DNA from: an uncultured Alphaproteobacteria bacterium
GTDB lineage: Bacteria > Pseudomonadota > Alphaproteobacteria > RF32 > CAG-239
NCBI GenBank assembly: GCA_944392295.1
Contig: CALXWE010000004.1
Coordinates: 45,819-109,818 of the forward strand
Direction of reading: 5' to 3'
DNA length: 64,000 bases
The translations under genes were made by a program, and so were the position numbers. How positions within the stretch are numbered: the stretch's first letter is position 1; each line of letters starts with the position of its first letter. The notes below the pieces were generated by a model that saw only the letters and a program-made list of their open reading frames with translations, was not told where the DNA came from and did not search any database. Shown in pieces: positions 7,018 through 62,787 of the stretch.

Positions 7018-7659
7018 TTATTTTGTATTTTTAAAATAAAATTGGAAATAGACTTGCTTTTTATCAGTTAATTCGAACTGTTGTTCACATATGTTATTTA
7101 TTTCGGAAATACTCATATTGGCAAAATCATATTGAGCGTTTACCAGGTTTATGTTTTTTCCTCCACCGGGTTGATTTCTTAAATATATAAAAGTAAATCC
7201 TTTAGGATTTTCTCTGTAAATGGGTTGTAATGCAAGTAGAATATTACGGCAATAAGAAATACCGATATCAATGCTTGGGAAGGTTATTGGAGTTTCGTAT
7301 TGAGGTTTGCCGTATATGGCTAGTACCGTATCGTGATTTAATGGGTGATTGTAAATATATATTGTACTATAAGTACCAAAGGCATCTTTCAGATACTCGT
7401 TTTGAACAGACATACCGTCGGGAATAGCATTTAACTTTTGATATATCGGAATCAAAGAATCATTTGGTTCGGCTGATATTTGATATTGATAGGTATAAAT
7501 CATATTAATTAATGATGAAATTTGCTCAGCTTGCTTATTTAGTTTATATTTCATCATCGCCTTAGAGTAACCGGCGATGGCACCGACGGATAGCACTCCA
7601 ATTATCGCCAGAACGCCGAGCATTTCGACCATCGAGCGTCCAAGTTCATTAAATTTCAT
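7018..7659 (-). CDS. Type IV pilin-like protein (prepilin N-terminal methylation domain, variable Cys-containing C-terminal domain), paralog 1 of 6, short leader
   Basis: MKFNELG|RSMVEMLGVLAIIGVLSVGAIAGYSKAM is a class III signal peptide. A short basic leader ends in Gly, Glu sits at +5 and a ~21 aa hydrophobic helix (AIIGVL) follows. A GGAGAT RBS lies 5 nt upstream. Confidence 0.7.
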   Translation of the reverse strand: MKFNELGRSMVEMLGVLAIIGVLSVGAIAGYSKAMMKYKLNKQAEQISSLINMIYTYQYQISAEPNDSLIPIYQKLNAIPDGMSVQNEYLKDAFGTYSTIYIYNHPLNHDTVLAIYGKPQYETPITFPSIDIGISYCRNILLALQPIYRENPKGFTFIYLRNQPGGGKNINLVNAQYDFANMSISEINNICEQQFELTDKKQVYFQFYFKNTK

Positions 7660-7777: not shown

Positions 7778-8407
7778 CTATTTCCAAGTAGCATAAAATA
7801 CGCATCCGCTTGATTCTTTTAAGCAACTATTACAGAGAGTATCAAAGTCTTCTAGAGTTAGACTTCTGATACATCTTTTGTTTTTAGATGTATCACAATA
7901 AGCGTCACCATGAAGAGTGTTTGATGAATATTCCGTATCTCCGTCTTCTGATTGACTTTGGATTTGTGAATAAGCGTTATACAATATTCCTGAATGTTCT
8001 TTGTATACATTAAGTAAGTTGCGGCATATTTCTAAACCGTTATTATCTGAACTAAATCGGTAGGCTAAACCGTAAACTGTTGGGTAGGCAAATACCCAAA
8101 TATCATTTTTAAAAATATCATTTAAATAGGTTGAGTTGCGGCGAGAGATTCCATCTGGGAGCATATTTAATTTATAAAGAGTTTCAGCAAAGTGCATGGC
8201 GGCGCCGTTGGTTGATGTATTAATTAACTTATGGCTTATTTCAAAAGCATTGATAAATAACATATTCATGCTTTCTGCTTGCTTATTTAGTTTATATTTC
8301 ATCATCGCCTTAGAGTAACCGGAGATGGCACCCACCGACAGTACGCCTATAATAGCCAAGACGCCGAGCATTTCGACCATCGAGCGTCCAAGTTCATTAA
8401 ATTTCAT
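7778..8407 (-). CDS. Type IV pilin-like protein, paralog 2 of 6, short leader
   Basis: The MKFNELGRSMVEMLGVLAIIGVLSVGAISGYSKAMMKYKLNKQAE N-terminus matches paralog 1. The C-terminal domain is divergent and carries LCNSC / Cys-rich motifs. Confidence 0.7.
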   Translation of the reverse strand: MKFNELGRSMVEMLGVLAIIGVLSVGAISGYSKAMMKYKLNKQAESMNMLFINAFEISHKLINTSTNGAAMHFAETLYKLNMLPDGISRRNSTYLNDIFKNDIWVFAYPTVYGLAYRFSSDNNGLEICRNLLNVYKEHSGILYNAYSQIQSQSEDGDTEYSSNTLHGDAYCDTSKNKRCIRSLTLEDFDTLCNSCLKESSGCVFYATWK

Positions 8408-16656: not shown

Positions 16657-16700
16657 AAAAGCGGTACTTTTACAAAAGCACCGCTTTTATTTTATTGGGT
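16657..16700. terminator. Bidirectional terminator between convergent genes
   Basis: aaaagcggtac-N10-gcaccgctttt with T-runs on both sides. Confidence 0.5.
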
Positions 16701-19700
16701 TATAGAATTGTTATTTTCAAGTTTCTTTTGGCGATACATACGTATCAACTTGGTTATGTAATTTTGTATCATTGAAACCATATATTTTTGATTATAGCTG
16801 TTGTGAATTTCATCATAATTATCTGTAGATGAAATGTTTTGCGTTTCTTTACCCTTTACAAAAAGTTTGATAAGAGCTTTTTTAAGTGCGGTCGGATTGG
16901 TGTTTTCTTGGGCTAAAAATACTTCTAAACCTTTTCCGGCAACACTGCGTGTTAGGGAATTGGGGTTACGGGACTTAAAGGTATCCGACATACCGCGAAT
17001 AACTTCCTTATCATTTTTACCGGAAAGCAATATCGCTCTTACAGCATTATATCCGGCTAAATCTTCGTTAGTCTTTGAGTTGTTAATGCTTTGTGCTATC
17101 TTAATAATGGCGGCAATTTTGGCGGCGTATTGCGATTTATAATTACCGCTTTTATATAACATCATATAGGTTGTTATCATATCGGGAGTTTCGCCTTCGC
17201 CCTTTTCGGCTACCGTAAAGTTAAAGGTATCGTATAAAAGACGTCCGAATTCATATCGGTCCTCAGGTGAAAATGGATGATTGTTTTCTTGTCTGTTAAT
17301 GGTATAGATAACCTCTTTCATGATGCCTTTTAAAATGGCCGTATCAACATTTTGACGTTTGATTAATTCTCCGATTGTCGGCATAAATTCCTTTGGTATA
17401 TCCGGACTTAAGGAATTTTTATCAAGTTCCTGAATGCGATCGGCCATTATTTTGAGTAATGGTATTTTAACTTCCGATGCTTGTTGAACTTTAATTATTT
17501 CTTTCTTGATTACGCTGCCTATTTTGGCGGGTAAATACTTAAAGGAATCGGCGTACATATTAAACAACATACTGCCTAAAAATTCTCTGTCCGAATACGA
17601 TAATAAATTTTGTTCTGAATAAAATAAACCGAGTTGTTTTATTCCTTCATCAACAAAACCGGTTATGATGCTTTCATCAATTGAGGTATTGCCGTCAGCT
17701 AAGGCGTTGTTTATACAATCTACCAAATCAATGATTTGAAAATCTTTATAAAAATCAATAACAGAGAGCAGTGTCTTTAGGCAATCTGATAAGTAGGATG
17801 AAGTCGTTTGTTTTAGCCGATAAGCATCTTCAATTTTGTTTCCGAGAGTAACGCTGAACTGACGGAATAAATTTCCTTCAAAATTACTGCTTACCATTTT
17901 CTCAAAAGTTTGGTATAAAAATTTTCCAAGCAATTTTTTATCTTGTGCCGAGGCATATACGGTGGCTCGTGCTCCACTATCAAAAATACAAATGGTATTA
18001 GTTTCCGGATTGAGGCGTATCTGTCGGCCAAATTCAGTATTGCTGACATTTCCCCCGCTTATTAATTTGCTTAATTTAAGACTGTTATAAATTTTATTTA
18101 CTACCTGTCTGTAACGTAAATTTTTAATTGTATCTAATGTGTTGCCGTAACTTCTTTCCATTTCTGCCCAAGTTTTACCGTAAGCTGTCCAATTGGCTAC
18201 TCTTAGCTTAATCTTATAACCATCAATTTCAAATTCACGGTGATTGTAGGTCTTTTGGGCCGCTTTTAGCTGCTCGTAGCCTACACTTAAATCGGTCTCA
18301 ATTATAACATCATGTCGGGTTTGAGTAATTATTTGTAGAAGACTATTGATGTTTTCGGATAACAGATTGTCGTGGAATAAGTCGTACAAAGTGTCTTCAA
18401 ATGCCTTAAATTCTTTTTCGGCAGAAGTTTTTGTAGCAGCATAAACGATTTTTACAACTTTGTCGCTTTCAAATGGTGATTTGTTTTTTTCAAGTGCACC
18501 TTTTTCTAAAGTTATAAAATACGGATTGGAGCTTAGGCTGCGTCCGAGCCAGATGTTTGAACTGTAATCAAGTTTGTTATCGTCATCTTGTGTATTATAA
18601 AAGTCAAGCCATTCAAACAATTCCCAACGAGCTGGGTGCTGCTCCTTAAACTTTATTTTTTGTAACTCTTTACGTATATATTTAGGCAGAGCTAAACAAA
18701 CTGTTGCCGATTGTGCTATACGTGTAGCAACCGGACCGGCATTTTCTAAAAAGATGCGGGTGCACTCTGCTAAATTTTTATTAGCATCGATGGTTGCCGG
18801 TGTCTCAAGGGCAGCGCTCATGGCTGCAGCCAGATATAATGTGCGCTCTGAATTTTTATGAGCTTTGATGTAGCTGTGTAAAATCTTACATACAATTTGT
18901 TTCTTAACATCATCAACAGCGGGTAACAAATGTTTACATATGCAGTTGAAAATGTGCTCCCAATCATTGGCCGAAATCCCTAAATTAGAAGCTTGGATAA
19001 CTTCACCTAAAATGACGGCACGGGCCTCTATTGGATATCCCCAAAATTCATGGTAAAGCATATCAAGAGTTTGCGGAGATATTCTTTCTTTACGAGAGCG
19101 TTGACTTTCTTGCAGTGCAGAATTTAAATGCTGGCTGTAGGCTTCACAATCCTTGTTACTACCGAATGTTAAAAGAAAGTCTATCAGATTATCGGCTTCC
19201 GTGCGGGATAAGGATATTAATGATTTAATTGTAGCAAATCCGGCAATTTGCAGCCTACATCCGTCATCTTCTTCGCTTATTTCCATAAAACTTGCAGGGT
19301 AGGGTTTTAACAGAAAAGCAAGTTTTTTTTGTGCTACAAATCTTTCTGCCAACAAGTGTGATAATTCAAGTCGGTCAGCCTGATTAACATTTTCATCAAT
19401 GTCTATGCCGAACATATTTTGTTCATAACTGTAGCCGTGCAGTTTTTGAGCATATACTTTTACTTTGTTGTAAAGGGATTCTGATTTGTCATCAATTTGT
19501 GAACCGCAGGAGCTAAATACCGATTGTACCCATAGCTGTTGATAACGCCTTCTTAAATCGGGGTCTAAAATACGGTGCTGCTTATTGATGAAAATATCGT
19601 AATAACTGTTTTTTAATTCAGGCTCGCGAATACTTTCTATCTCGGGAATAAAGTTTTCCAAAAATTGATGTTGTAAAACATAATCGTCGGCAAATCCGTT

Positions 19701-22670
19701 GACTTCAACCAATTTTTGATAGGCCTTAATTTTACCTATTAAATCGACATTGAATGCCGGGTTGTCTTGGATTAGCATATTTTTGAGTTGGTTGTCGCCA
19801 ATGTAGTCTAGTGTTTTGGCTATCTCAACCGAGGCAGCAAGAGCTTTTTGCGGGTTGTTTTCTTTTTTAATTTGTTTGATTATGTAGCTCAAACTTTCCG
19901 TATCATCAATAAGACCTTGCTCGCGAAGGCTGCGGTAGACCTTAACCATGCCCAAAATGTCGGCAGGATAATTTTCTCTTTTGATTAAAAACGGTTTGAG
20001 CTTGGCTCTTTGCAAATCCAGCAATTCATAAAGCGGATACTTTGATAATATCTCAAGCGGAAACAGATGCTTGTCATCGGTGATGATGTATAGCAGCATA
20101 CCGGTTCGGATATTGGCTGCCAAATCATCGGAAGATTGTAAAAGTTTTTCATCTTTAAAGTCGGCAAAATCAACCGGAAAATCTAGAGCCTTTCGAATGT
20201 GTTCGTAAAAGACCGGTTGATATTTTTGGAAATTAATATTCTCTAATGTTAAGTGTTTGTCTGCAGCCATTTCGTTAAGAGCAAAAACGGCAAGACGTTT
20301 TAATTCGGGAATGACAATGTTGTTTTTGCTTAACAGACCTAAATCGAGAAGTTTCTTAACGCCTACTTTTTCAAACAAGGTGTTGTAATATTTAATAAAT
20401 TGGGCTTCGCTGAAAAATTGTACGCTGCGTGGGGATTTAAGCGCATCTTTACAAAATTGCATAAATTCATATTCGATAGGTTGCAATGTGTTAAGCGACC
20501 AACCGTATTCTGCATGTTCAACGTCGTTGCAAACGTGGCTTAAGTAAGCTTCAAAAATTATGTTGTCGTTTTCAAGACTATACTTCGAATTAACAAATGC
20601 TAAAATCTCGGGACCGAGCAGTTTGTTAAATCGCAGCTCGTTAAATTTGCTGTAACCTTCGTAAATTTCCGAGGAAGTTTTGAGCATGTAAAAACTATCT
20701 TCTATAAAATTTTCAACAGGCTGTTTTTGCGGATAGGCAACGCTGGTATTATCTTTGAGTAAGGCATTGGCATAATCAAGGGATGATACTGCTTCTGACT
20801 TTGCTACATATTTGTATGGACCGGTGAGACCTTTAAGATGTAAGAGGTCTTTACTGCTTAAGTTTTTAATTTTTTGCGGATTTTGCGAAGCCGTACGAAT
20901 TATATCGTAGTACTGCTTAATCTCCTTGGCAAGCTGCCGATAAATGGTATCTTCCCTGGTTTGCAGTAAATCTTCAAGTTTGGCTTTATATTCTTTTGGT
21001 GAAAACGAATCGAGGATTTTGCCTTGATTGTCGCAAATATAAAACCAGCTCTTATCGGTAACATCAGCTGAAAATGGGGCTTCGCGGTAATTGCCGCGAT
21101 AGTGTATTATATAGCACCCTTTATATATTTCTTTGGCGGTTAATCCTAGGATTTTTTCATATACGGAAGATCGCAAAGCAATTAAGGGTATGGTCTTACC
21201 TTTATCAGAACCGTTTTGTTCCAGAGGTAATTTAGGAAATCTGTCCAGCTTAAATTTTTTAAACAGATAGCTATCGCTTTTAGGGTAAAATTTTAAATCT
21301 TGCGGTAAAAATGTAGTCGGGTTGTCGGAGCTGAAACAATCTCGGATATTGGAAAATTTTGACCATACACGACGCTGATATGCAGGGTCTTCTTGGTTGT
21401 GAAATACTTTTTCAAATTCTTCCAAAATGTTTCTTCCGGTAGGAAGTTTGCTGATATCAATATCTTCTATGCCGCTTAAAATACATCCGTTATAAATGCT
21501 TAAATAATCGCCGTCGGGAAGCTGGGTTTCTAAATCAAGCAATTTATCCCAGAACAAAACGTTGGGAAAAGTTCCCTCAGCAATGGCCCGCTTTTGATAC
21601 TCTTCAAGCAGATTGTTAAATCGGGAAACAGTTTCAAATGCATCATCAGGTACAATTTTTTGCGGAAAACTTTCTAAAATTGAAATACGATGCTCAAGAG
21701 ATTCCGGCAAAGGCGTATGAAAAATTTCTTGCCAACGTTTTTGACGCAACTCTTCGTGAGCCGGATTATAACTTTTAAATAATTCATAGTCGCTTTGAGA
21801 GACAATTTTACGTGCCATATTGCGTCTTAAGTCGGCGACATAACTTAAAATAACATCTTCAATTTGTACGGCTTGATTATGAGTTAATTCCTTTGAAGGC
21901 GGAATAAATTCTTTTAGAGCAGAAATTAATATATCTTGCTTTTCGATTAAACTAAAGGAATCGTACTTTTTACTTTCTAAAAGTTTACGCAGGCTTGATT
22001 TATAGTAACTTTTGTTTACCGAAGTTTTAAATTTAACCGGAATTTCGGTCGGCTCAAAAGCCGTAATGTCAATATCTTGTTTGTAATAGAAACTTTGTAA
22101 AGATTGAATCTTTAACTGTAAAGCATTAAGCATACTTTCATTATTAGGGTATTGTTTGAAAGCTTTTAAGATTTTTGCAGATAAAGAGTGATATTTTTGT
22201 GAGTTAAGAAAAATATGGGTTATTAAACTTTCGGCCTGGGCAATGTTATATTTGGCCTGAGCTAACATTTTAAGGGCGTTAAAGTCAGAAGAATCTCCTG
22301 CGCTGTAATCGGTGTTTTTGAAATAAGCAGGAATAAGTTTTAGCTCATAACTCATAATGAAGGCTAATTGGTCTTCATTTTGTACAATATTGATTAGACC
22401 TTTGGTTACGGTTAGGACAGGAATAAGGTTTTGCTTGCCGGCTTGATTTTTAATTTGCGGAACAACAAAGGAAATATTAGGTTCACTATCGTCGGTGATG
22501 CAGAAAAATACGGGATTTTGATCAAGATCAAATGAGGTGCCGAAAAGTCGGCGGGCTATACCCTCAAGATAAGAGCATCTTTCTTGTTCTTCTTGCAAAG
22601 TACCATCAATGATTTTAATCTGGTCATACAAATCAGAAGGTAAATTTCTTTTAATCTGTAAAACATCCAT
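16692..22670 (-). CDS. Giant hypothetical protein (1992 aa), no recognisable domains; candidate secreted effector
   Basis: A single uninterrupted 5979-nt ORF. It has no signal peptide or TM segments and no P-loop or other motifs I can place. It is K/N/E/L-rich and mostly helical. Confidence 0.6.
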   Translation of the reverse strand: MDVLQIKRNLPSDLYDQIKIIDGTLQEEQERCSYLEGIARRLFGTSFDLDQNPVFFCITDDSEPNISFVVPQIKNQAGKQNLIPVLTVTKGLINIVQNEDQLAFIMSYELKLIPAYFKNTDYSAGDSSDFNALKMLAQAKYNIAQAESLITHIFLNSQKYHSLSAKILKAFKQYPNNESMLNALQLKIQSLQSFYYKQDIDITAFEPTEIPVKFKTSVNKSYYKSSLRKLLESKKYDSFSLIEKQDILISALKEFIPPSKELTHNQAVQIEDVILSYVADLRRNMARKIVSQSDYELFKSYNPAHEELRQKRWQEIFHTPLPESLEHRISILESFPQKIVPDDAFETVSRFNNLLEEYQKRAIAEGTFPNVLFWDKLLDLETQLPDGDYLSIYNGCILSGIEDIDISKLPTGRNILEEFEKVFHNQEDPAYQRRVWSKFSNIRDCFSSDNPTTFLPQDLKFYPKSDSYLFKKFKLDRFPKLPLEQNGSDKGKTIPLIALRSSVYEKILGLTAKEIYKGCYIIHYRGNYREAPFSADVTDKSWFYICDNQGKILDSFSPKEYKAKLEDLLQTREDTIYRQLAKEIKQYYDIIRTASQNPQKIKNLSSKDLLHLKGLTGPYKYVAKSEAVSSLDYANALLKDNTSVAYPQKQPVENFIEDSFYMLKTSSEIYEGYSKFNELRFNKLLGPEILAFVNSKYSLENDNIIFEAYLSHVCNDVEHAEYGWSLNTLQPIEYEFMQFCKDALKSPRSVQFFSEAQFIKYYNTLFEKVGVKKLLDLGLLSKNNIVIPELKRLAVFALNEMAADKHLTLENINFQKYQPVFYEHIRKALDFPVDFADFKDEKLLQSSDDLAANIRTGMLLYIITDDKHLFPLEILSKYPLYELLDLQRAKLKPFLIKRENYPADILGMVKVYRSLREQGLIDDTESLSYIIKQIKKENNPQKALAASVEIAKTLDYIGDNQLKNMLIQDNPAFNVDLIGKIKAYQKLVEVNGFADDYVLQHQFLENFIPEIESIREPELKNSYYDIFINKQHRILDPDLRRRYQQLWVQSVFSSCGSQIDDKSESLYNKVKVYAQKLHGYSYEQNMFGIDIDENVNQADRLELSHLLAERFVAQKKLAFLLKPYPASFMEISEEDDGCRLQIAGFATIKSLISLSRTEADNLIDFLLTFGSNKDCEAYSQHLNSALQESQRSRKERISPQTLDMLYHEFWGYPIEARAVILGEVIQASNLGISANDWEHIFNCICKHLLPAVDDVKKQIVCKILHSYIKAHKNSERTLYLAAAMSAALETPATIDANKNLAECTRIFLENAGPVATRIAQSATVCLALPKYIRKELQKIKFKEQHPARWELFEWLDFYNTQDDDNKLDYSSNIWLGRSLSSNPYFITLEKGALEKNKSPFESDKVVKIVYAATKTSAEKEFKAFEDTLYDLFHDNLLSENINSLLQIITQTRHDVIIETDLSVGYEQLKAAQKTYNHREFEIDGYKIKLRVANWTAYGKTWAEMERSYGNTLDTIKNLRYRQVVNKIYNSLKLSKLISGGNVSNTEFGRQIRLNPETNTICIFDSGARATVYASAQDKKLLGKFLYQTFEKMVSSNFEGNLFRQFSVTLGNKIEDAYRLKQTTSSYLSDCLKTLLSVIDFYKDFQIIDLVDCINNALADGNTSIDESIITGFVDEGIKQLGLFYSEQNLLSYSDREFLGSMLFNMYADSFKYLPAKIGSVIKKEIIKVQQASEVKIPLLKIMADRIQELDKNSLSPDIPKEFMPTIGELIKRQNVDTAILKGIMKEVIYTINRQENNHPFSPEDRYEFGRLLYDTFNFTVAEKGEGETPDMITTYMMLYKSGNYKSQYAAKIAAIIKIAQSINNSKTNEDLAGYNAVRAILLSGKNDKEVIRGMSDTFKSRNPNSLTRSVAGKGLEVFLAQENTNPTALKKALIKLFVKGKETQNISSTDNYDEIHNSYNQKYMVSMIQNYITKLIRMYRQKKLENNNSITQ

Positions 22671-22887: not shown

Positions 22888-25587
22888 ATGAGTAAATGGG
22901 TTTATACATTTGGAAACGGCAAAGCCGAAGGCGATGCCAGCATGCGTAATCTCCTCGGCGGTAAAGGTGCTAACCTTGCTGAAATGAACAAGGTTGGTTT
23001 GCCTGTTCCTCCGGGATTTACCGTAACAACTGAAGTTTGTACTTATTACTATGATAACAACAATACTTATCCGGCAGATTTGAAAGATCAGGTAAGAGAA
23101 GCCGTTGCCGGTGTTGAAAAAATTATGGGCAAAAAGTTTGCTGATGCCAATAATCCGTTGTTGTTCTCAGTTCGTTCCGGTGCAAGAGTTTCAATGCCTG
23201 GTATGATGGATACCGTTTTGAACTTGGGCTTAAACGATGAAACAGTTAAAGCTTTGGCTAAAGCTTCCGGCAGTGAAAGATTTGCTTACGACTCTTATCG
23301 CCGTTTCTTGCAAATGTTCTCCGACGTAGTTTTGGGTGCCGATTTGGATTTGTATGAAGAAGCTTTGGATAATATGAAAAAATCTAAAGGTTACAAGTCG
23401 GATACCGATTTAACTGCCGAAGATTTGAAAGAACTCGTTAAAGAATATAAAGAAATCGGTGCTAAATTAGGTAAAATCGTTCCGCAAGATCCTTGGGAAC
23501 AATTATGGGCAGGTATCGGTGCCGTATTTGGTTCTTGGATGTCGGCTCGTGCCATTACTTACCGTAAATTAAACAATATCCCCGGCGATTGGGGAACAGC
23601 CGTTAACGTTCAAACCATGGTATTTGGTAATGCCGGTGATGATTGTGCTACGGGTGTTTGCTTCTCTCGTGACCCTGCAACCGGTGAAAACGTATATTAC
23701 GGCGAATATTTAGTTAACGCTCAAGGTGAAGACGTTGTTGCCGGTATTCGTACTCCGCAACCGATGGGCAGTATCGGTGATGGCACTTCTTTGGAAGAAA
23801 AATGGCCTAACTTGTATAAAGAATTGGTTGATGCCAGAAATAATCTGGAAAATCACTACAAAGATATGCAGGATATGGAATTTACCATTGAACATGGTAA
23901 ACTTTGGATGTTGCAATGCCGTAACGGTAAAAGAACAGCTGCTGCTGCCGTTCGTATGGCCGTTGAAATGGTTGAAGAAGGTTTGCTCACCCCTGAGGAA
24001 GCTATTATGCGTGTAGGTGCTGACCAATTAGACCAATTGTTGCACCCGATGCTTGATCCTAAAGCTAAGAAAAATGTTATTGCTACCGGTTTGCCGGCTT
24101 CTCCTGGTGCTGCCGTTGGTCGTGCCGTATTTAACGCTGAAGATGCTGAAGCTTGGGCAGAAAAAGGTGAAAAAGTTATCTTGATCCGTAACGAAACCTC
24201 TCCGGAAGATATTGGCGGTATGCACGCTTCTCAAGGTGTTATTACTGCTCGCGGCGGTATGACTTCTCACGCAGCCGTTGTTGCTCGTGGTATGGGTACT
24301 CCTTGCGTTTCCGGTTCTAAAGATATTACAATCGATTATAAAACCAAAACTATGACCACTAAGTCTGGTGTTGTTGTTAAAGAAGGCGACTGGGTATCTT
24401 TGGATGGTGCTAAAGGTCAAATCATTGAAGGTCAAATTCCGACCGTTAAGGCTGATACCAATACCGGTAACTTCGGTAAATTGATGACTTGGGTTGATCA
24501 AATTCGTACTATGAAAGTTCGTGCTAACGCTGAAACTCCTAAAGATGCTCAACAAGCTCTTGATTTTGGTGCAGAAGGTATCGGTTTGGCTCGTACCGAA
24601 CATATGTTCTTCGATGCCGGTCGTATTGCTGATATGCGCGCTATGATTTTGGCTGATAACGAAGCTGGTCGTCGTGAGGCTTTGGCTCGTTTGCTGCCTT
24701 ATCAAAAACAAGACTTCAAAGACTTGTTCAAAATTATGAACGGTTTGCCGGTTACTATTCGTTTGTTGGATCCTCCGTTGCATGAATTCTTGCCTCATAC
24801 CGATCCGGAAATGAAGGAATTGGCCGATAAATTAGGTAAAACTTTGGAAGAAGTTAAAGTAAGAGCTAACGCTTTGCACGAATTGAACCCGATGTTGGGT
24901 CATCGTGGTTGCCGTTTGCCGATTACTTATCCTGAAATCGGTGAAATGCAAACTCGCGCTATCTTAGAAGCTGCTTTGGAATGCGAAGCTGAAGGAATTA
25001 AAGTTATTCCTGAAATCGAAGTTCCGTTAACAGGTTCTAAGAAAGAGTTGGATATTGTTAAAAACATTATCGATACAACTGCTGAAAAAGTATTTGCTGA
25101 AAAAGGTAAGAAGATTGATTACATCGTAGGTACCATGATTGAGTTGCCTCGTGCCGCTTTGATGGCTGAAGAAATTGCTGAATCTGCTGCATTCTTCGGT
25201 TTTGGTACAAACGACTTAACTCAAACCACTTTGGGTATGAGCCGTGATGATACCGGTGCCATTTTGGATGAATACCGCGCTAAAGGTGTTTATGTAGCTG
25301 ATCCGTTTGCTTCGATCGATGTTGACGGTGTTGGTAAATTGGTTCGTCGTGCCGCTGTTGAAGGCCGCGCTACCAATCCGGATTTACACTTAGGTGTTTG
25401 CGGTGAGCACGGTGGTGATCCTAAATCTATCGAATTCTTTGATGAAGTAGGTTTGGATTATGTTTCTTGCTCTCCGTTCCGTGTACCGGTTGCTCGTTTG
25501 GCTGCAGCTCAAGCTGCTGTTAAACACAAAGGCAAAAAGAAAGATGTCGATGGTGCATCTCACGGTTGCTGCAAAAAATGCGCTTAA
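22888..25587 (+). CDS. ppdK: Pyruvate, phosphate dikinase
   Basis: N-terminal ATP-grasp. The central phospho-His domain is GGMTSHAAVVARGMG. The C-terminal PEP-utilising TIM barrel has GLRTEHMF and CGE.GGDP. There is a ~20 aa Lys/Cys-rich C-terminal tail. Confidence 0.95.
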   Translation: MSKWVYTFGNGKAEGDASMRNLLGGKGANLAEMNKVGLPVPPGFTVTTEVCTYYYDNNNTYPADLKDQVREAVAGVEKIMGKKFADANNPLLFSVRSGARVSMPGMMDTVLNLGLNDETVKALAKASGSERFAYDSYRRFLQMFSDVVLGADLDLYEEALDNMKKSKGYKSDTDLTAEDLKELVKEYKEIGAKLGKIVPQDPWEQLWAGIGAVFGSWMSARAITYRKLNNIPGDWGTAVNVQTMVFGNAGDDCATGVCFSRDPATGENVYYGEYLVNAQGEDVVAGIRTPQPMGSIGDGTSLEEKWPNLYKELVDARNNLENHYKDMQDMEFTIEHGKLWMLQCRNGKRTAAAAVRMAVEMVEEGLLTPEEAIMRVGADQLDQLLHPMLDPKAKKNVIATGLPASPGAAVGRAVFNAEDAEAWAEKGEKVILIRNETSPEDIGGMHASQGVITARGGMTSHAAVVARGMGTPCVSGSKDITIDYKTKTMTTKSGVVVKEGDWVSLDGAKGQIIEGQIPTVKADTNTGNFGKLMTWVDQIRTMKVRANAETPKDAQQALDFGAEGIGLARTEHMFFDAGRIADMRAMILADNEAGRREALARLLPYQKQDFKDLFKIMNGLPVTIRLLDPPLHEFLPHTDPEMKELADKLGKTLEEVKVRANALHELNPMLGHRGCRLPITYPEIGEMQTRAILEAALECEAEGIKVIPEIEVPLTGSKKELDIVKNIIDTTAEKVFAEKGKKIDYIVGTMIELPRAALMAEEIAESAAFFGFGTNDLTQTTLGMSRDDTGAILDEYRAKGVYVADPFASIDVDGVGKLVRRAAVEGRATNPDLHLGVCGEHGGDPKSIEFFDEVGLDYVSCSPFRVPVARLAAAQAAVKHKGKKKDVDGASHGCCKKCA

Positions 25588-25632
25588 TTTAGAAGTGTTT
25601 AGATAATACTTATAAATTGGAAGCAAATTGCA

Positions 25633-25665
25633 AAGAGCGTCTGATATTTATCAGGCGCTCTTTAA
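25633..25665. terminator. Hairpin terminator between convergent ppdK and pilin paralog 3
   Basis: agagcgtctga-N6-tcaggcgctct with a weak T-run. Confidence 0.45.
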
Positions 25666-25774
25666 TGATTTAAATTTGATGAAACTTTTGGGTAATAATA
25701 CGGTGTTAAATTTCTGGAAATGATGACTTTAACGTTTATTTAAGTGCTTTTACCGATTAGGATTATGTGTTAAT

Positions 25775-26443
25775 TTACTTAAATACATAATATACAACAC
25801 ATATGTTACCCTTTAAGCATTGATTACATAAATTCCAGATAGTGCTAATATCTGCTGAATAAATACAATAGTCCTGGTTACTACACGTTTTACCATAGAG
25901 CCACTGCTGTTGATTTTCGTCGTTACTATCGGTACCGTTAAATCCGATTGCTTGTAATTCATAGGCAAAGCCTTTTGCTAAGTTAAAGCGATTAATACAA
26001 GAATCTATATCGCTGTTATAAAAACGGATGAATGTTTGCTTACTTGTATTGTCTCTGTATATAAGTATTTGATTATTGAAACTATCATAAATATAATCAG
26101 TATTATCTTTAATCATTTCTTGGGGGATTATGTTAAGCTTTTTATAATATGGAAGCATATATGTTACTTGTTCAGATGAATTTGTTTCGTATAATATGTT
26201 TTTGTATTCAATCATTCCGCTTAAAAGCTGGCTAAGTTGTTCGGTCTGTTTGTTAAGTTTATATTTCATCATTGCTTTAGAGTAACCGGCGATGGCGCCG
26301 ACGGACAAAACTCCGATAATTGCCAGCACGCCCAGCATTTCGACCATACTTCTTCCGGCGGAAAGTTTGTATAAGGGCTCATCTAAAGCCGTTTTATGGG
26401 AGCTTATTTTTACGAATTGGCATAAAAATTTATAAAATTTCAT
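25775..26443 (-). CDS. Type IV pilin-like protein, paralog 3 of 6, long leader
   Basis: MKFYKFLCQFVKISSHKTALDEPLYKLSAG|RSMVEMLGVLAIIGVLSVGAIAGYSKAMMKYKLNKQTEQ. The C-terminal domain is divergent with the LCNQC..C motif. Confidence 0.7.
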   Translation of the reverse strand: MKFYKFLCQFVKISSHKTALDEPLYKLSAGRSMVEMLGVLAIIGVLSVGAIAGYSKAMMKYKLNKQTEQLSQLLSGMIEYKNILYETNSSEQVTYMLPYYKKLNIIPQEMIKDNTDYIYDSFNNQILIYRDNTSKQTFIRFYNSDIDSCINRFNLAKGFAYELQAIGFNGTDSNDENQQQWLYGKTCSNQDYCIYSADISTIWNLCNQCLKGNICVVYYVFK

Positions 26444-26520
26444 CTAAAACCTCCGAGTTTTGTTCAATAAAGGACTTTAAACGAAATCATAAACCGTTTT
26501 TTTTTTTTGCAATTTTAAAG
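26444..26520 (-). promoter_or_regulatory. Conserved pilin promoter/5' leader module, copy 3 (T12 tract 26497..26508)
   Basis: Same conserved block. It shares the intergenic region with the divergent gene at 26654. Confidence 0.55.
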
Positions 26521-26653
26521 TTAATGCGTTTGATAAAATCAGCTGGTATGTTATGTTTATTTTTTGTTAAATCTTATTGGTTACACTTTGTTTTATTGAC
26601 TTTTGTCGCTCTTTATTTTATAATGTGACAAAAGAAGACAAAAAAGGTGCGCC

Positions 26654-28144
26654 ATGAAAAAGGCTGAGTTGGTAAATTTTTTAGAGGCGGAATATGCCGC
26701 TGCACATCGTTCTCCAAAAACTATAAAGCTGTTGGGGCATTCTTATGTTATCCCTTGCGTGTATTTGACCGAATATCAAGATCCAGAAAAATCTTTTATG
26801 AATGATTTTTTTGAGTTAATGCGTAAAGATTATCTGCATTATAAACGTTGTAATGAAGAACCTCAGTATGTTTGTTTGGCGCTCGGTGATAAAAGTATAA
26901 GACTGGTGGTGCCTTATGCCTTACGCTATAAAAATCATACCCCAAATGAAATTGCCGATAAAATCTTAAAAAGAGCCAGTGATAAATATTGGCGGGCGGT
27001 TAGATTATCATCGGAGATGGCCGAAATTTATCCTGACAGACCGTTCAAAACATTTATTAATTTGGCTAACTTAAAAGAAATGCGTAACGCCTTAAGATTG
27101 CACCGTCTCAAAGAAGCTCGCGATAGAACTGCCTATATTACGAAAAAGGTTGGCACGTTCTTGGCTAAAAATGCTCGTAAAGTTACGAATAATATTAAAC
27201 ATATGGATGTTGACCGCCTTAAGGCCAAAGCTAAAACCTGGGCGGTGGTAGCGGTGCTTGGAGCAACCATTAATGCCGCTGTTTATACTGCTTTCCAAAT
27301 TAAAGATAAATCAGAACAAAAAAAAGAAGTACAAGCTAAAGACCCTTTGGGGCATATCAGAATGTTTTCACGTTGTCATGATGCCATTAAGGTTAGTTTG
27401 GCTTTTGCCGAAAATTTTGCTCCTAAAGCTTTTAAAGACGGTGTAGGTGTACCGACTATCGGTTACGATTGTACTTATTATTTGGATGAAAACGGTAAGG
27501 GAAGCCGTGCAACGTCGCCGGTGAAAATAGGAGATAATATTACTAAAGAAGAAGCCAATGTTCAAAAAGAGCGCTACTTACAGTTTGAAATCTTAAATCA
27601 AATTCAAGAAAATGTTAAAGTCCCGTTAGATGAAGCAACAATGATTGCTACATGTAATTTTGCTTATGTGTTGGGCTCAACGAACTTTAGGAATTCAGAG
27701 TATCTAAAAGCCTTAAATGAGGGTAAAAAAGGTGAAGAGCTCGTTAAATATTTAACCGGATATCGTCAGCAAAAGGGCTTGCTACCAAGATTTTATTTTA
27801 TGGGTGCTTTGCTTAACGGTAAATTAAAAACTTCCGATTTTTTGAATTTAACGGCAGAAGGTTGTTATAATCTTAGTACCAAAGATGTGTGCGTCTATAA
27901 AGGAAATAGAATAAAACTTGATGGTGAAGGGTTTGCCGAGTTTGATTATGATAAGTTAGAGCAAAATCTTGTAAAATCTAACAGAGCACGACGCAGTAAA
28001 GCTTGCGGAAATAAAAAGTGTCCGCCGGTTAAAGATATTTTACCGCAATCGGTAATTGACGGTGTTTTACAAATGGAAAAATCATCAAATTATACGGGCT
28101 TATTGTCGGAAAGTTTGTTGAATCTAAATGCCAATTCGAGATAA
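26654..28144 (+). CDS. Membrane-anchored protein with C-terminal T4/GH24-type lysozyme-like domain
   Basis: One TM segment (TWAVVAVLGATINAAVYTAF). The C-terminal region has the T4-lysozyme catalytic spacing E-x8-D-x5-T (AENFAPKAFKDGVGVPTIGYD) and downstream FAYVLGSTNF, which is GH24-like. Confidence 0.55.
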   Translation: MKKAELVNFLEAEYAAAHRSPKTIKLLGHSYVIPCVYLTEYQDPEKSFMNDFFELMRKDYLHYKRCNEEPQYVCLALGDKSIRLVVPYALRYKNHTPNEIADKILKRASDKYWRAVRLSSEMAEIYPDRPFKTFINLANLKEMRNALRLHRLKEARDRTAYITKKVGTFLAKNARKVTNNIKHMDVDRLKAKAKTWAVVAVLGATINAAVYTAFQIKDKSEQKKEVQAKDPLGHIRMFSRCHDAIKVSLAFAENFAPKAFKDGVGVPTIGYDCTYYLDENGKGSRATSPVKIGDNITKEEANVQKERYLQFEILNQIQENVKVPLDEATMIATCNFAYVLGSTNFRNSEYLKALNEGKKGEELVKYLTGYRQQKGLLPRFYFMGALLNGKLKTSDFLNLTAEGCYNLSTKDVCVYKGNRIKLDGEGFAEFDYDKLEQNLVKSNRARRSKACGNKKCPPVKDILPQSVIDGVLQMEKSSNYTGLLSESLLNLNANSR

Positions 28145-28146
28145 TA

Positions 28147-28180
28147 AAAAAGCTCCTTAATTTTTAAGGAGCTTTTTTAT
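28147..28180. terminator. Bidirectional terminator
   Basis: aaaagctcctta-N6-taaggagctttt plus a T-run. Confidence 0.65.
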
Positions 28181-28200
28181 TGTTTAAAGTTGACTTGGAA

Positions 28201-29379
28201 CTAGAATACCAATCTCATTGTATCTTTGGCAATCATCAATTCTTCATCGGTCGGGATAACAAAAACTTTTACTTTAGAATCCGGGGTTGATATTTCCAAA
28301 GTTTGTCCGCGTTTATTGTTATTTTCTTCATTAAGCTTAATGCCTAAATAAGCTAAGCGCTCAACAACAAGTTTACGAACGATTGAACCGTTTTCACCTA
28401 CACCTGCGGTAAAGACAATGGCGTCAACGCCGCCCAACACGGCAATGTAACCGCCGATAAAACGCAATAAGGTGTGAACATAGACGTTCATAGCATCAAT
28501 AGCATCTTGCTCGCCGTTTAAATAACGTGCTTCAACATCACGATTATCGGAAAATCCGCAAATGCCGAACATGCCGCTTTGTTTGTTAAGCAAAGTATTT
28601 ACTTCGTCTACGGTCTTGTTTTGAGTTTTCATAATGTACAGCGGAATGTAGGGATCGATATCGCCGGAACGAGTACCCATAACAACACCGGCCAGCGGAG
28701 TAAAGCCCATGGAGGTATCAACGCATTTACCGTGCTCAATGGCGGCAATTGACGCTCCGTTGCCTAAATGGCAGGTAATGATTTTACCTTCTTTACCAAT
28801 AAGTTCGGCAGCTTTTTGTGATACATATTTATGCGAAGTGCCATGGAAACCGTAACGACGAATTTTGTGCTCGGTGTATTGTTCTTTAGGCAGAGCGTAT
28901 AAAAAGGCTTCTTTAGCCATGGTCTGATGAAAAGCCGTATCAAATACTACAACTTGCGGAATATTTGGCAAAATGCTCTTTACGGCTCTGATACCGGCAA
29001 CGCTTGCCGGATTGTGTAAAGGTGCGAGCTCGGAAAGTTCGGCAATTTCTTCAATAACCTCATCGGTTACTATAGCAGAGCCCTTAAATGTTTCGCCGCC
29101 ATGCACAATACGGTGTCCTACGGCGCTTAATTCATCCATGCTGTGCAAAGGACCGCTCAAGAGCATATTTAATACCTCGCGGATGGCTTCGGTATGGGTC
29201 GGTAATTCAACATCTTTAACTTGTTTATCATCACCTATTTTTAAGCTGACAAAAGAGCCGTGAATACCGATACGATCGGCAACACCTTTGGCCAAAACTT
29301 CGTAGTTGTCGCCGTCAACGTTAAACAGCTGATATTTTAATGATGAGGAACCGGAGTTTAATACTAAAATTTTTTTCAT
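28201..29379 (-). CDS. ackA: Acetate kinase
   Basis: MKKILVLNSGSSSLKYQLF N-terminus with downstream ASKHD-family motifs. Confidence 0.92.
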   Translation of the reverse strand: MKKILVLNSGSSSLKYQLFNVDGDNYEVLAKGVADRIGIHGSFVSLKIGDDKQVKDVELPTHTEAIREVLNMLLSGPLHSMDELSAVGHRIVHGGETFKGSAIVTDEVIEEIAELSELAPLHNPASVAGIRAVKSILPNIPQVVVFDTAFHQTMAKEAFLYALPKEQYTEHKIRRYGFHGTSHKYVSQKAAELIGKEGKIITCHLGNGASIAAIEHGKCVDTSMGFTPLAGVVMGTRSGDIDPYIPLYIMKTQNKTVDEVNTLLNKQSGMFGICGFSDNRDVEARYLNGEQDAIDAMNVYVHTLLRFIGGYIAVLGGVDAIVFTAGVGENGSIVRKLVVERLAYLGIKLNEENNNKRGQTLEISTPDSKVKVFVIPTDEELMIAKDTMRLVF

Positions 29380-36277: not shown

Positions 36278-37069
36278 TTATTTTGTAAAATCAAACTGTA
36301 TCCACTGGTAAAAGTAAAGACTACCGTTATTTACAAACTCATTGTAACTTTTTTGGCAGGCTTCATAAAAATCGTGGGTTGTCATATTAGGTAGGCAAGG
36401 GGATGTAGATTTACAATTTTGCCGATAATAGTAATAATATGGTCGCTCAATCCAAACGGTTGTCAAAGATGAAGTTTCTGGTTGTATGGATTTTAACATC
36501 TGAAACGTATTAACACAAGCATCTACGGAGCTTTGTGCTTTGTTATAATGAATAATAAATGCAAGATTATTTCCATTTTTTCCTACATATAATTCTATGC
36601 TTATACCAAGAGAGGTTTTGACAACGTTTTTGCTTATATAAGATACACCATCAGGTAATGATTTTAATGTATTCAGTAACCCGGCGACATCTGTTCCCGA
36701 AGATGTTTTTTCGTAATATTTTTGTGAAATAGTCGATGTAACAGCGGTCAGCAGTTCCGAAATTTGTTGGGTGTGTTTATTTAATTTATATTTTGTCATC
36801 GCCTTAGAGTAGCCGGATATAGCGCCAACCGATAGAATGCCAATGATAGCAAGAACACCAAGCATTTCGACCATACTTCTTCCGGCGGAAAGTTTGTATA
36901 AGTGCTCATCTAAAGCCGTTTTACGGTACTGAAAAAAATTCATGTACTTTTTGTGTACACTAAAATTTTTTTCGCCCCTAGAAACGACTTTATCTAAACT
37001 CTTCTCCAAACTTTCGGGAAAAAAGGGGCTGATTTTTACGAATTGGCATAAAAATTGATAAAATTTCAT
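36278..37069 (-). CDS. Type IV pilin-like protein, paralog 4 of 6, long leader carrying a 102-bp in-frame insertion
   Basis: MKFYQFLCQFVKIS-[34 aa insert]-RKTALDEHLYKLSAG|RSMVEMLGVLAIIGILSVGAISGYSKAM. The C-terminal domain is divergent. Confidence 0.65.
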   Translation of the reverse strand: MKFYQFLCQFVKISPFFPESLEKSLDKVVSRGEKNFSVHKKYMNFFQYRKTALDEHLYKLSAGRSMVEMLGVLAIIGILSVGAISGYSKAMTKYKLNKHTQQISELLTAVTSTISQKYYEKTSSGTDVAGLLNTLKSLPDGVSYISKNVVKTSLGISIELYVGKNGNNLAFIIHYNKAQSSVDACVNTFQMLKSIQPETSSLTTVWIERPYYYYYRQNCKSTSPCLPNMTTHDFYEACQKSYNEFVNNGSLYFYQWIQFDFTK

Positions 37070-41741: not shown

Positions 41742-41920
41742 AAAAATTAAAGAGTTATGATAATTTATTATACCTATGTATTTATATCACATCTTTTATT
41801 ATGCGCAAGTTTTAAATGTACATTAGATATAGATTCTGTGTTTGTTTTTTATTGTTGATTTTCTTGACTTTGCAACGCAAAGTCAGTACCTTGCCGGATG
41901 TTATTAAAAGGAGAATCGTG

Positions 41921-43072
41921 ATGAAAAAATTGTGGCTGGCTTTGATGCTTATTATATGCTCTGCCAATTCGGCTTGGGCTATGCAAATCTTTGTTAAAAC
42001 TTTAACCGGTAAACATATTACTCTGGAAGTTGAACCTACCGATACAATTGGAGACATAAAACTTAAAATTCAAGATAAAGAGGGCATTGCCCCAAGTGAA
42101 CAAACCTTGGTCTTTGCCGGAAAAGAACTTGAAGATGCTAATACTTTACAAGATTACAGCATTTTCAAAGATTCAACTCTGCATTTAGTCTCAAACAATA
42201 AGGTTACCAATTTATCATTAAATGTTAATCCGGCTCATATTGTAAGGCAAAATGCCGATATGCTGCTTAATAACGTTGCAGCTCGTACAAGCGGCGGGAT
42301 TAGCTCCTATAAAAGTGCCGAACAAATAAATCTGCAGGATAATACTTCTCTTTGGGTCAGCACTCTTGCCGGACATTCACAATATTTAAATACCGATACT
42401 TATGGTCTTTCGTTGGCCTTTGAAAAGAAGCTGGCAGATTTTAAATATGGTTTAGGTTATGCTTATTTAAAAAATGATATTGATGATGCTTTAAACACCG
42501 ATGTACAAAATCATTCCGGCTTTGTATATGCCGAATATAAGCCTTCAGCTTGGTATACCAATGCCATAGTTATGTATTCTCATTCGCGGTTTGAAGAAAA
42601 TGATTTTAATAAATATAACGTTCAAGCTATATCTTCTCAGTTGATGAGCGGATATGATTTTTATTATGTTACGCCGGAAATGGGAATTAGATATATCCAT
42701 ATTTGGAATAACCGCTATACCAATGCTCAAAATATGCAAATGACTAAAAATAATGAAGATATTTTAACGGGGGTTATCGGTATAAAGCTGGCAAAAGAGA
42801 TAACCTTAAATGCCGATTATAGTTTTGTTCCGCAAGCCAAGGTCTCGGCATTATATGATTTTTCACGAGCCAGCGGCGTTGCCAATGCTTATGTAAACGG
42901 CAAATATGCTGTTGTTCATAGTGATGTAATGGCTAAGTATGCCACGGAAATTAATGTCGGGCTTAAACTGGTTAAACAAAATTCGTGGGAGACTTATTTA
43001 GGCTATTATGCACAGTTGCGGAATAATTATAATATTCATTCCGTAATTGTTAATTTTGCCTATGACTTTTAA
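41921..43072 (+). CDS. Signal peptide + eukaryote-like ubiquitin domain + C-terminal outer-membrane beta-barrel (autotransporter-like) fusion protein
   Basis: An AAAGGAGA RBS precedes [20 protein letters not shown]|[70 protein letters not shown]. The ubiquitin-like part is ~74% identical over 70 aa to eukaryotic ubiquitin. K48 and K63 are retained and the LRLRGG tail is missing. The ~290 aa C-terminus has alternating hydrophobic beta strands and ends in VNFAYDF, the terminal-Phe signature of outer-membrane proteins. Confidence 0.75.
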
Positions 43073-55873: not shown

Positions 55874-56485
55874 GTGCTAAGAAAAATACTTTTTTTATTG
55901 GTTATTTCTTTAGTCATTGTTCACCCGCTTAAAGCTCAGAAAGAATACGAAGTAAATGCATCAAGACCCTTGCAGGCTGATGCTTCGGAGGTTTGTTCAC
56001 TGGCTGCGGCGCGTATGGAAGAAAAATACGCTATTAAAGATCATTTGTTGCAAACTATCTCAAGTGTTGAGACTGGTTTGTGGAATTATGAAAAAGAGCA
56101 GTTCGTTTCTTGGCCGTGGACTATTAATGTTAACGGACGTGGTTATCGTTTTGATACTAAGGAAGAGGCTATTGCTAAAGTTGAAGAACTGCAGGCTAAA
56201 GGAATAAAAAGCATAGATGTAGGGTGTATGCAAATAAGCCTTAAATATCATAAAAATGCGTTTGCTAACCTTGATGATGCTTTTGACCCTGATAAAAACG
56301 TCGAATACAGCGCTAAGTTTTTAACTAAACTTTATAAAAATCGCGGTAGTTGGCAGAAAGCTGCTATGGCTTATCATTCCAAAGTTCCTTCTCGCGGTTT
56401 GCGTTATAAAAATAAATTAGTATCTCGTTTTGAGCAAATAAATGTGGCTTTGGCCGATAATGCTCAGGATGTTTCCTTATTCTAA
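55874..56485 (+). CDS. Lytic transglycosylase (SLT domain) protein, secreted
   Basis: Signal peptide. TISSVETG carries the catalytic Glu-Ser-type motif. GCMQI matches the SLT GLMQ motif. Confidence 0.55.
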   Translation: MLRKILFLLVISLVIVHPLKAQKEYEVNASRPLQADASEVCSLAAARMEEKYAIKDHLLQTISSVETGLWNYEKEQFVSWPWTINVNGRGYRFDTKEEAIAKVEELQAKGIKSIDVGCMQISLKYHKNAFANLDDAFDPDKNVEYSAKFLTKLYKNRGSWQKAAMAYHSKVPSRGLRYKNKLVSRFEQINVALADNAQDVSLF

Positions 56486-61272: not shown

Positions 61273-61983
61273 TTACTTTATAGGTAAAAAGATGTAAAAA
61301 TCACAACTGACTTCCGCTTCACAGCTATTACATAAAGTATCGATATCGGTTAAAGAAGCATTACGAAGACAGTTATTGGGATTAGTACATATAGAGTCTC
61401 CGTATAAAGCCGTGGTACCGTAACCATCTTCGTTTTTTTGCCGCATTTGAATAGAGTTTATGTTAGCGGCATTTTCTTTGGCGGCGGTAACTATATTGCG
61501 GCAGATTTGTGCCGAATAGGGGCTTATTTTGTTATTTACCCTATTCATGTTTATATAAATATTATATTCAACATGTTTGAATACAGCTTCAAAGTAATAT
61601 GAGGTGGAAATACGGTTATTAAATATATCGTAGATACGGTTGGTAGCTTCATCGTAATGCATACCCTCAGGTATCAGATTAAGTTGTTTGAAAATGATTG
61701 TGCCTATGGCCTGTTGTTGGAAGGAGCGATTTAATTGCGGACCCAATTGAATAGCATTATTAATCAGCGTGTTCATTGATTCTGCGTGTTTATTAAGTTT
61801 ATATTTGAACATGGCTTTGGAGTAGCCGGCAATAGCACCGACAGAAAGTACACCAATAATGGCTAAAACTCCCAACATTTCAACCATACTTCTTCCGGCG
61901 GAAAGTTTGTATAAGGGCTCATCTAAAGCCGTTTTACGGGAATTAAGTTTTACAAAATGGCATAAAAATTGATAAAATTTCAT
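61273..61983 (-). CDS. Type IV pilin-like protein, paralog 5 of 6, long leader
   Basis: MKFYQFLCHFVKLNSRKTALDEPLYKLSAG|RSMVEMLGVLAIIGVLSVGAIAGYSKAM. The C-terminus has LCNSCEAEVSC. Confidence 0.7.
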   Translation of the reverse strand: MKFYQFLCHFVKLNSRKTALDEPLYKLSAGRSMVEMLGVLAIIGVLSVGAIAGYSKAMFKYKLNKHAESMNTLINNAIQLGPQLNRSFQQQAIGTIIFKQLNLIPEGMHYDEATNRIYDIFNNRISTSYYFEAVFKHVEYNIYINMNRVNNKISPYSAQICRNIVTAAKENAANINSIQMRQKNEDGYGTTALYGDSICTNPNNCLRNASLTDIDTLCNSCEAEVSCDFYIFLPIK

Positions 61984-62109: not shown

Positions 62110-62787
62110 CTATAAACGCCAGTTGATGTCAATGTTACAGGTTACTTTATCCATGCAGCTTTTGCACATACTGTATATTTCATCAAGAGTAATATCCGTA
62201 ATGCATTTTTGCGATGAATTGCAAGTCTTGCCGTAAAAATAAAACTCATATTGATGATCGTTGTTTCCGGATGAAGAACCGATGAATAAGTGTGAAAAAT
62301 CTTGTGAATGAGCCTTAGCAACATTTAACAGATTTTGGCAGGTTGTGAAGTTATCGGAAGTAGGTTCAAGATAATATACAATATGAGTGAGTAAAAAAGT
62401 CGGACCGCCGTTGTTACTGATTAATACTTTATTTCCCATAGCGTCATATAAAAACCCGTTTTCGACTTTCATACCATCTGGAATTAGGTTCATTTTTTGA
62501 AACAATGTTATCAAATTAGTCCACTGGTTATATTTTAATTGCGGAGTGTAGGTGGTCATAACATTAAATAGCCAGGAGATTTGCTCGGCTTGTTTGTTAA
62601 GCTTATATTTAGTCATCGCCTTAGAGTAGCCGGAAATGGCACCGACAGATAATACGCCTATGATTGCAAGAACGCCGAGCATTTCGACCATACTTCTTCC
62701 GGCGGAAAGTTTGTATAAGGGCTTATCTAAAGCTGTTTTACGGGGTCTTATTTTTACGAATTGGCATAAAAATTGGTAAAATTTCAT
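62110..62787 (-). CDS. Type IV pilin-like protein, paralog 6 of 6, long leader
   Basis: MKFYQFLCQFVKIRPRKTALDKPLYKLSAG|RSMVEMLGVLAIIGVLSVGAISGYSKAM. The C-terminus has MCKSCMDKVTC. Confidence 0.7.
   Translation of the reverse strand: MKFYQFLCQFVKIRPRKTALDKPLYKLSAGRSMVEMLGVLAIIGVLSVGAISGYSKAMTKYKLNKQAEQISWLFNVMTTYTPQLKYNQWTNLITLFQKMNLIPDGMKVENGFLYDAMGNKVLISNNGGPTFLLTHIVYYLEPTSDNFTTCQNLLNVAKAHSQDFSHLFIGSSSGNNDHQYEFYFYGKTCNSSQKCITDITLDEIYSMCKSCMDKVTCNIDINWRL

Follow-up and report, generated by a model that had tools for sequence, protein, structure and literature searches.

MltG/MpgA combines a cytoplasmic tail, a single transmembrane (TM) segment and an extracytoplasmic glycan-cleaving domain. 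The GH24 endolysins of P22, of lambdoid phages and of the signal-arrest-release (SAR) type (P22 gp19, R21, P1 Lyz, DLP12 RrrD) share a lysozyme fold with the catalytic signature E-x8-D/C-x5-T, and the SAR endolysins R21 and P1 Lyz carry a weakly hydrophobic, Gly/Ala-rich membrane segment at the extreme N-terminus. In Brucella abortus, the small GH108 autolysin SagA serves the VirB type IV secretion system (T4SS); it has been described together with an inhibitor, PhiA (PMC8334348). In the Caulobacterales, a prophage GH24 domain was co-opted into the core developmental factor SpmX, presented by its authors as the first housekeeping domestication of this kind (Randich et al., bioRxiv 10.1101/418723). 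Here we analyze a gene of an uncultured alphaproteobacterium (RF32; CAG-239), at positions 26654-28144 (+ strand) of a 64,000-nt stretch of contig CALXWE010000004.1, hereafter the window. What is new is that this gene encodes a domesticated GH24 muramidase whose N-terminal domain is unmatched in the libraries searched and is shared with GH108 enzymes.

The open reading frame (ORF) begins with an ATG codon and encodes 496 amino acids, as the original prediction had placed it, and its reading as a membrane-anchored protein with a C-terminal, GH24 lysozyme-like domain agrees with a profile match, a complete catalytic triad and a single hydrophobic segment. A four-part architecture is close to certain. 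The N-domain (residues 1-192; 26654-27229, + strand, as for all parts of the gene) is an orphan alpha/beta domain with a long helical hairpin and lacks a signal peptide. Next comes a stretch of weak hydrophobicity and no charge, WAVVAVLGATINAAVYTAFQI (residues 196-218; 27239-27307), which Kyte-Doolittle values and flanking charges mark as a probable N-in signal-anchor. A charged, variable linker recognized from the homolog alignment (residues 219-232; 27308-27349) leads to a P22/T4-type GH24 muramidase domain (residues 233-388; 27350-27817), assigned by profile, motif and fold, and then to a clade-specific C-domain (residues 389-478; 27818-28087), delimited by model and alignment, in which C404 and C456 are conserved. 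The linker differs in length and sequence among full-length homologs and has the highest density of within-species polymorphism in the protein. The exact 496-residue protein (P0147) is present on 8 public contigs.

The GH24 assignment is supported at several levels. Residues 253-374 matched the Pfam profile PF00959 (Phage_lysozyme) at 55.5 bits (curated cutoff 22.3; E=9.5e-15), and a sequence search of the PDB returned GH24 endolysins exclusively (the PHAb10/11-type 9kbq and 9kbs, 6et6, 7m5i, RrrD and P22). PHROGs annotates this region as 'endolysin', the two-lobed lysozyme fold characteristic of GH24 is present, and the core is 30-38% identical to phage endolysins. The catalytic constellation that had been recognized by eye corresponds to the hairpin E253-x8-D262-x5-T268 (27410-27457); in the alignment of 23 full-length homologs all three residues aligned and were invariant. 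Across 80 related GH24 domains, the Glu and the Thr were each found in 80/80, and position 262 was Asp in 60, Cys in 17 and Glu in 3. The fold and signature are shared with the P22, lambdoid and SAR endolysins; muramidase activity of the domain is predicted.

Beyond the lysozyme core, the protein departs from its phage relatives. Phage endolysins have no counterpart of the C-domain, their matches ending at about residue 380-397, and the C-domain had no match in PDB, Pfam or PHROGs. It is modelled by AlphaFold2 (AF2) with predicted local distance difference test (pLDDT) scores of about 87-95. C404 is present in 55/56 sequences and C456 in 51/56, and a C404-C456 disulfide is likely. This Cys-bearing domain was overlooked in the original prediction, as was the sharing of the N-domain between GH24 and GH108 enzymes. 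The window gene further differs from phage endolysins in its chromosomal, syntenic location.

The N-domain was rightly called novel at the outset: for its ~190 residues, searches of Pfam, NCBIfam, PHROGs, BFVD and PDB, the last by sequence and by fold, all came back empty, and so did the PADLOC search for defence systems. Neither the N-domain nor the C-domain was found in 50,697 phage genomes. Modelled alone, the N-domain reached a pLDDT of 87 and a predicted template modelling (pTM) score of 0.79, with two beta-hairpins packed against short helices followed by the long helical hairpin. We scored an N-domain profile against 1.84 billion representative proteins at E<=1e-3 and recovered 80 clusters, about 75 of them genuine. 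About four were multi-hit repeat or tetratricopeptide repeat (TPR) proteins; P0048, P0084, P0087 and P0100 gave multiple short matches to the helical hairpin region and were judged spurious. A word-indexed search with a diverse N-domain alignment yielded 4 fragments and nothing more.

In the genuine clusters the domain is always N-terminal, beginning at or near residue 1, and full-length proteins continue with a hydrophobic segment free of charge at about residues 165-235. What follows the segment falls into three architectures. GH24 domains were identified in 23 clusters by Pfam and in about 35 by a family-specific hidden Markov model, and GH108 domains (PF05838) in 14 by Pfam, with the catalytic EGGY and D-x-x-T-N-x-G-I motifs retained. 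The third architecture has a ~670-residue region without a known hydrolase domain and with C-terminal TPR repeats. GH24 and GH108 are unrelated in sequence, and both are phage-type N-acetylmuramidases. Since the same N-domain and anchor precede both, the module seems to position, oligomerize or gate a glycan-cleaving enzyme. We propose a family, with the window protein as its founding query, that would be recognized by an N-domain of ~150-190 residues (conserved E13-Y14, P34, Y37, F48, Y63, P87 and Y112), followed by a hydrophobic stretch lacking charge and by a glycan hydrolase; N-domain alignments and the profile search place the window protein within it. The window and the fetched loci each contained one N-domain gene, always the muramidase gene. 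The genes with a GH108 domain lie in metagenome-assembled genomes (MAGs) of Alphaproteobacteria, as stand-alone genes whose housekeeping surroundings are unrelated, such as ferritin and cysS on either side. Proteins of the third architecture (P0049, P0051, P0063, P0066, P0074 and P0080; loci L060/L061) show the N-domain and anchor, then ~380 domain-free residues and the TPR repeats; a further enzyme active on the wall could lie hidden in this middle region.

Among 5.8 billion clusters searched, we found 23 full-length homologs, with identities ranging between 32% and 98%. When one genome per GTDB species was scanned, the family occurred only in MAGs of uncultured gut and rumen Alphaproteobacteria (L001-L028), all other matches being to the lysozyme core alone. 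We compared gene order among these 28 related loci and a locus from another strain of the window species (L062). The order PPDK, lysozyme gene, ackA, pta, orf347, AI-2E permease, orf321, GNAT and lepA was kept in L001-L011, and the PPDK-lysozyme gene pairing also in the distant L012-L014 and L028; synteny of the gene is conserved in at least 12 species of these lineages. Across loci, the neighbouring proteins were 80-97% identical and the lysozyme protein 57-75%. This combination of conserved position and lower identity than the neighbours indicates a vertically inherited, fast-evolving core gene. The domestication of a phage endolysin, raised as one option from the sequence, therefore stands in the form of a fixed core gene; the accompanying suggestion of a remnant does not, given its conservation, synteny and a ratio of nonsynonymous to synonymous substitution rates (dN/dS) of 0.28.

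Two features of this locus vary among the related genomes. In five loci (L002-L005 and L009), the lysozyme gene is separated from ackA by the gene of an extra multi-pass membrane protein of ~346-369 residues (MFNISEFIRTNRVYFIWG...), inserted on the opposite strand; the window lacks it. The stretch separating PPDK from the lysozyme gene (25588-26653 in the window; also L004, L005, L008 and L010-L014) is a variable insertion spot whose content differs by species: a pilin gene, HPF/PtsN-like genes, other small ORFs or nothing.

We then considered which side of the membrane the enzyme faces. Segment 196-218 is the sole hydrophobic stretch of the protein, rich in Ala, Gly and Thr and free of charge, with KAKAK on its N-side and KDKSEQKK on its C-side; AF2 pLDDT falls below 50 there. 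The segment probably inserts into the membrane. The N-side flank is consistently more positive than the C-side in the window protein and its relatives, which, with a single hydrophobic segment and no N-terminal signal peptide, supports a cytoplasmic N-terminus and a periplasmic core. Most informative on this point, seven loci (L016-L019, L021, L022 and L024) encode sister proteins in which the same GH24 and C-domain core, without the N-domain, stands behind lipoprotein-type signal peptides (..GCS), ending in ...LTGCS, ...VAGCS, ...ASGCS and ...VQGCS in L016, L019, L021 and L022. These paralogous cores are destined for the periplasm, and because the sister proteins begin in this way, the GH24 and C-domain core appears built for that compartment. 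Conservation of Cys404 and Cys456 fits an oxidizing compartment and lends further support to a periplasmic location. In L028, at the orthologous PPDK-linked position, a short tail and anchor precede the core. For the window protein, the predicted topology is a cytoplasmic N-domain with GH24 and C-domain in the periplasm.

Taken as a whole, these observations make it somewhat probable that the protein is a domesticated muramidase working in the periplasm on an inner-membrane tether, with a new module that controls or positions it from the cytoplasmic side; its physiological role is inferred. The ~190-residue N-domain would stay in the cytoplasm, segment 196-218 would act as an N-in signal-anchor, and the short charged linker would tether GH24 and the disulfide-bearing C-domain in the periplasm. 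There the GH24 enzyme would cut glycan strands in the peptidoglycan of the cell itself, the N-domain with its helical hairpin would position, oligomerize or gate it from the cytoplasmic side, and the C-domain might bind substrate or modulate the active site. Such a protein could be a housekeeping autolysin under trans-membrane control, used for wall remodelling in growth or division or for making local gaps. The tether logic resembles that of MltG/MpgA; the catalytic folds (YceG versus GH24) and the cytoplasmic domains are unrelated.

A bolder version, which we consider less likely than not, is that the N-domain and the marginal helix constitute a new trans-membrane module for autolysin control, serving in the cytoplasm as a sensor, oligomerizer or divisome adaptor and gating the cleavage of glycan in the periplasm. 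GH24 and GH108 enzymes of gut Alphaproteobacteria would have recruited it independently, and it would be analogous, and unrelated, to FtsEX-EnvC or the cytoplasmic domain of MltG.

Several points weigh against the tethered, cytoplasmically controlled muramidase that we favour. No conserved partner gene was found beside the GH108 and TPR variants, so the neighbourhood suggests no partner for the N-domain, and the case for cytoplasmic control is purely architectural. The Kyte-Doolittle value of the anchor is marginal, 1.65 in the window protein and 1.1-1.7 in relatives, many of which lie below the classical threshold of 1.6. Between the window and L062, dN/dS was 0.28 for the lysozyme gene as compared with 0.03 for PPDK, 0.008 for ackA and 0.02 for pta; selection on the lysozyme gene is purifying but relaxed. 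The alleles of the window species raise a further concern. The window allele has Asp at residue 272 (codon 27467-27469), a position that is Gly in 79/80 related GH24 domains and in all other alleles of the species; this G272D change is not a single read error, because the allele occurs on 8 contigs. Among the other same-species alleles (P0001 and P0148-P0155), G341D is found in three and G375D in one, all at conserved glycines, and C-terminal frameshifts truncate the protein in two alleles of the species. The Gly-to-Asp alleles could reflect attenuation of the enzyme within the species or a G-to-A mutation bias. Together with the frameshifts, they may mean that catalytic activity is dispensable or undergoing attenuation, as in SpmX, and hint that full catalytic strength may not be needed, or may even be selected against, in the window species, the route that SpmX took.

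It is these alleles that favour an SpmX-like scaffold, in which the lysozyme domain would serve mainly as a localization or interaction module, with catalysis attenuated, and organize a polar or septal complex. We consider this unlikely. In SpmX, D20 is replaced by L/R and T26 is unconstrained, whereas the window family conserves its E/D/T triad, with Glu, D/C/E and Thr kept across the 80 domains. The domain order is also opposite: SpmX has an N-terminal muramidase and two C-terminal TM helices, while in the window protein a new domain and one anchor come first and the muramidase follows them. The NCBIfam SpmX model (NF051871, LysLocSpmX) scored 12.3 bits against a cutoff of 700. Moreover, the swap with GH108 enzymes that retain EGGY argues that enzymatic activity is what is selected. 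SpmX and the window protein appear to be independent domestications.

The character of the anchor and the closeness of the GH24 core to phage endolysins suggest a second alternative, an autolysin for programmed lysis or release. The N-domain would sense a signal, a SAR-like segment would trigger the muramidase, and lysis of a subpopulation would free DNA, vesicles or particles like gene transfer agents (GTAs). With its Gly/Ala/Thr-rich composition and marginal hydrophobicity, the anchor does resemble that of SAR endolysins, and the model of the Bartonella GTA endolysin BgtA (NF058676) gave a weak match. However, that match reached 38.4 bits, far under the cutoff of 315, and genes for holins, spanins, GTAs or phage structural proteins were absent from the vicinity of every locus examined. 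The SAR segment of R21 and P1 Lyz occupies the extreme N-terminus; in the window protein the weakly hydrophobic segment follows a 190-residue folded domain, which is incompatible with periplasmic release of the SAR type. In place of a lysis cassette, the window gene has PPDK, a pilin gene, ackA and pta as neighbours. We doubt this explanation as much as the scaffold.

The pilin neighbour brings up a third alternative, the one with which the original prediction had set out: a machine-associated wall hydrolase that makes local openings in the peptidoglycan for type IV pili or another envelope apparatus, as Brucella SagA does for the T4SS. The lysozyme gene is divergent from a pilin-like paralog (GRSMVEMLGVLAIIGVLS; 25775-26443, - strand), and these organisms encode very many pilins. 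Moreover, SagA is a T4SS-associated autolysin of an alphaproteobacterium (PMC8334348), and GH108 is among the partners of the N-domain. SagA parallels the window protein in being a muramidase of phage type that its alphaproteobacterial host employs as an autolysin, as we propose here, and differs in having no N-domain and anchor module; PhiA-like or T4SS genes were not seen here. A machine-dedicated hydrolase of the VirB1, SagA, EtgA or FlgJ kind would be encoded inside the cluster of its machine or co-conserved with it; the window gene shows neither. No PilB/C/M/N/O/Q-type genes, and no other pilus or secretion assembly genes, were found in the 64-kb window, nor pilus or secretion assembly genes at the GH108 loci.

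The pilin is also not conserved at this position. Only the window species (the window and L062) and L011 have a pilin gene in the interval from PPDK to the lysozyme gene, and in L010 one is nearby with two other genes in between; adjacency thus occurs in about 3 of at least 12 species, the others having an empty spot or unrelated small genes. Pilin paralogs make up 6 of the ~57 window ORFs of at least 120 residues, an abundance that makes adjacency by chance likely. Both the 210-bp intergenic region shared with the pilin gene and the 77-bp conserved module next to its start (26444-26520, - strand; alignment of 6 paralogs) are real, as first described. The best candidate promoter of the lysozyme gene lies outside that module: a sigma70-like TTGACT-17-TATAAT (26596-26624, + strand; a consensus match only, 11/12), about 30 nt 5' of the ATG, is the top-scoring site of its type within 25500-28400. 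A Shine-Dalgarno-like AAGGTG read from the sequence (26644-26649, + strand) lies 4 nt upstream of the start codon. With the pilin unconserved across the 28 loci and the promoters separate, we rejected the link to the extent that local evidence bears on it; the pilin next to the lysozyme gene looks like a coincidence, and service to a pilus or other envelope machine is rather improbable.

Polymorphic toxins offer a fourth comparison. Swapped C-terminal lytic domains behind a constant N-terminus are their hallmark, and the periplasm-facing part of the protein evolves relatively fast, as it might in an antibacterial effector with a constant N-terminal trafficking domain and interchangeable GH24 and GH108 toxin domains delivered to competitors. 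Yet the surroundings do not fit. The window locus has no immunity-sized downstream ORF, the gene being convergent with ackA; small unannotated ORFs adjoin the GH108 genes, but on the opposite strand. No T6SS, T7SS (type VI and VII secretion systems), contact-dependent inhibition (CDI) or Rhs genes are nearby, and the N-domain matches no known family. Each ~20-kb locus examined has a single copy of the gene, whose syntenic position is fixed; its product has an internal anchor, and the sister proteins are ordinary lipoproteins. The antibacterial or host-targeting effector suggested earlier is thus a weak candidate and, in our judgement, highly unlikely.

A decaying, functionless prophage endolysin, to which the 30-38% identity of the core might point, is effectively refuted by full-length conservation down to 32% identity, the intact triad, the fixed housekeeping synteny, dN/dS below 1 and the absence of phage genes. 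Family searches detected no phage genes or families in the 64-kb window, as had been noted from the sequence, and IMG/VR searches matched only the GH24 core. The prophage remnant was rejected on these grounds and on the absence of the full architecture from phage genomes.

The window is otherwise of housekeeping character, with genes for SecA, Cmk, RsmE, PPDK, AckA, Pta, LepA, EF-Tu, MlaD, a Lon-like protease, PrmA and others. One ORF at 55874-56485 (+ strand) encodes a 203-residue SLT-domain lytic transglycosylase (PF01464, E=2.6e-7); the GH24 protein is therefore accompanied in this organism by at least one conventional enzyme that cleaves glycans. In a 418-residue protein (41816-43072, + strand), residues 58-126 match a ubiquitin domain of eukaryotic type strongly (PF00240, E=2.6e-24), an unusual feature for a bacterium. 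Upstream of PPDK, a 1992-residue ORF (16692-22670, - strand) has no Pfam domain and recurs with 37-52% identity in the corresponding place of L004, L005 and L011.

The six pilin-like paralogs (7018-7659, 7778-8407, 25775-26443, 36278-37069, 61273-61983 and 62110-62787, all - strand) are each preceded by the 77-bp module, which carries a run of twelve A residues (TTGC-A12-CGGTTTATGATTTCG...GGAGG). In 4/6 paralogs, a conserved in-frame stretch of ~66 nt separates the pilin N-terminus from an upstream ATG, so that the leader measures ~33 residues (MKFYKFLCQFVK...KLSAG|RSMVE); in the other two the leader is short (MKFNELG|RSMVE). The copy at 36278-37069 has an additional insertion of ~100 bp in its leader.

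How bacteria control their own wall-cutting enzymes is a central open problem, and to our knowledge very few trans-membrane control modules of such enzymes have been described. A phage-type lysin fixed as a core gene would be the second independent example after SpmX, here with a complete catalytic triad. The tempting, unsupported link between the enzyme and the organism's many pilin genes is removed. The gene family also provides a marker for a poorly known, uncultured gut lineage. An N-domain found on two unrelated muramidase families is domain-swap evidence of the kind that usually marks a functional module; this swap therefore makes it a concrete candidate for control of autolysins from the cytoplasm to the periplasm.

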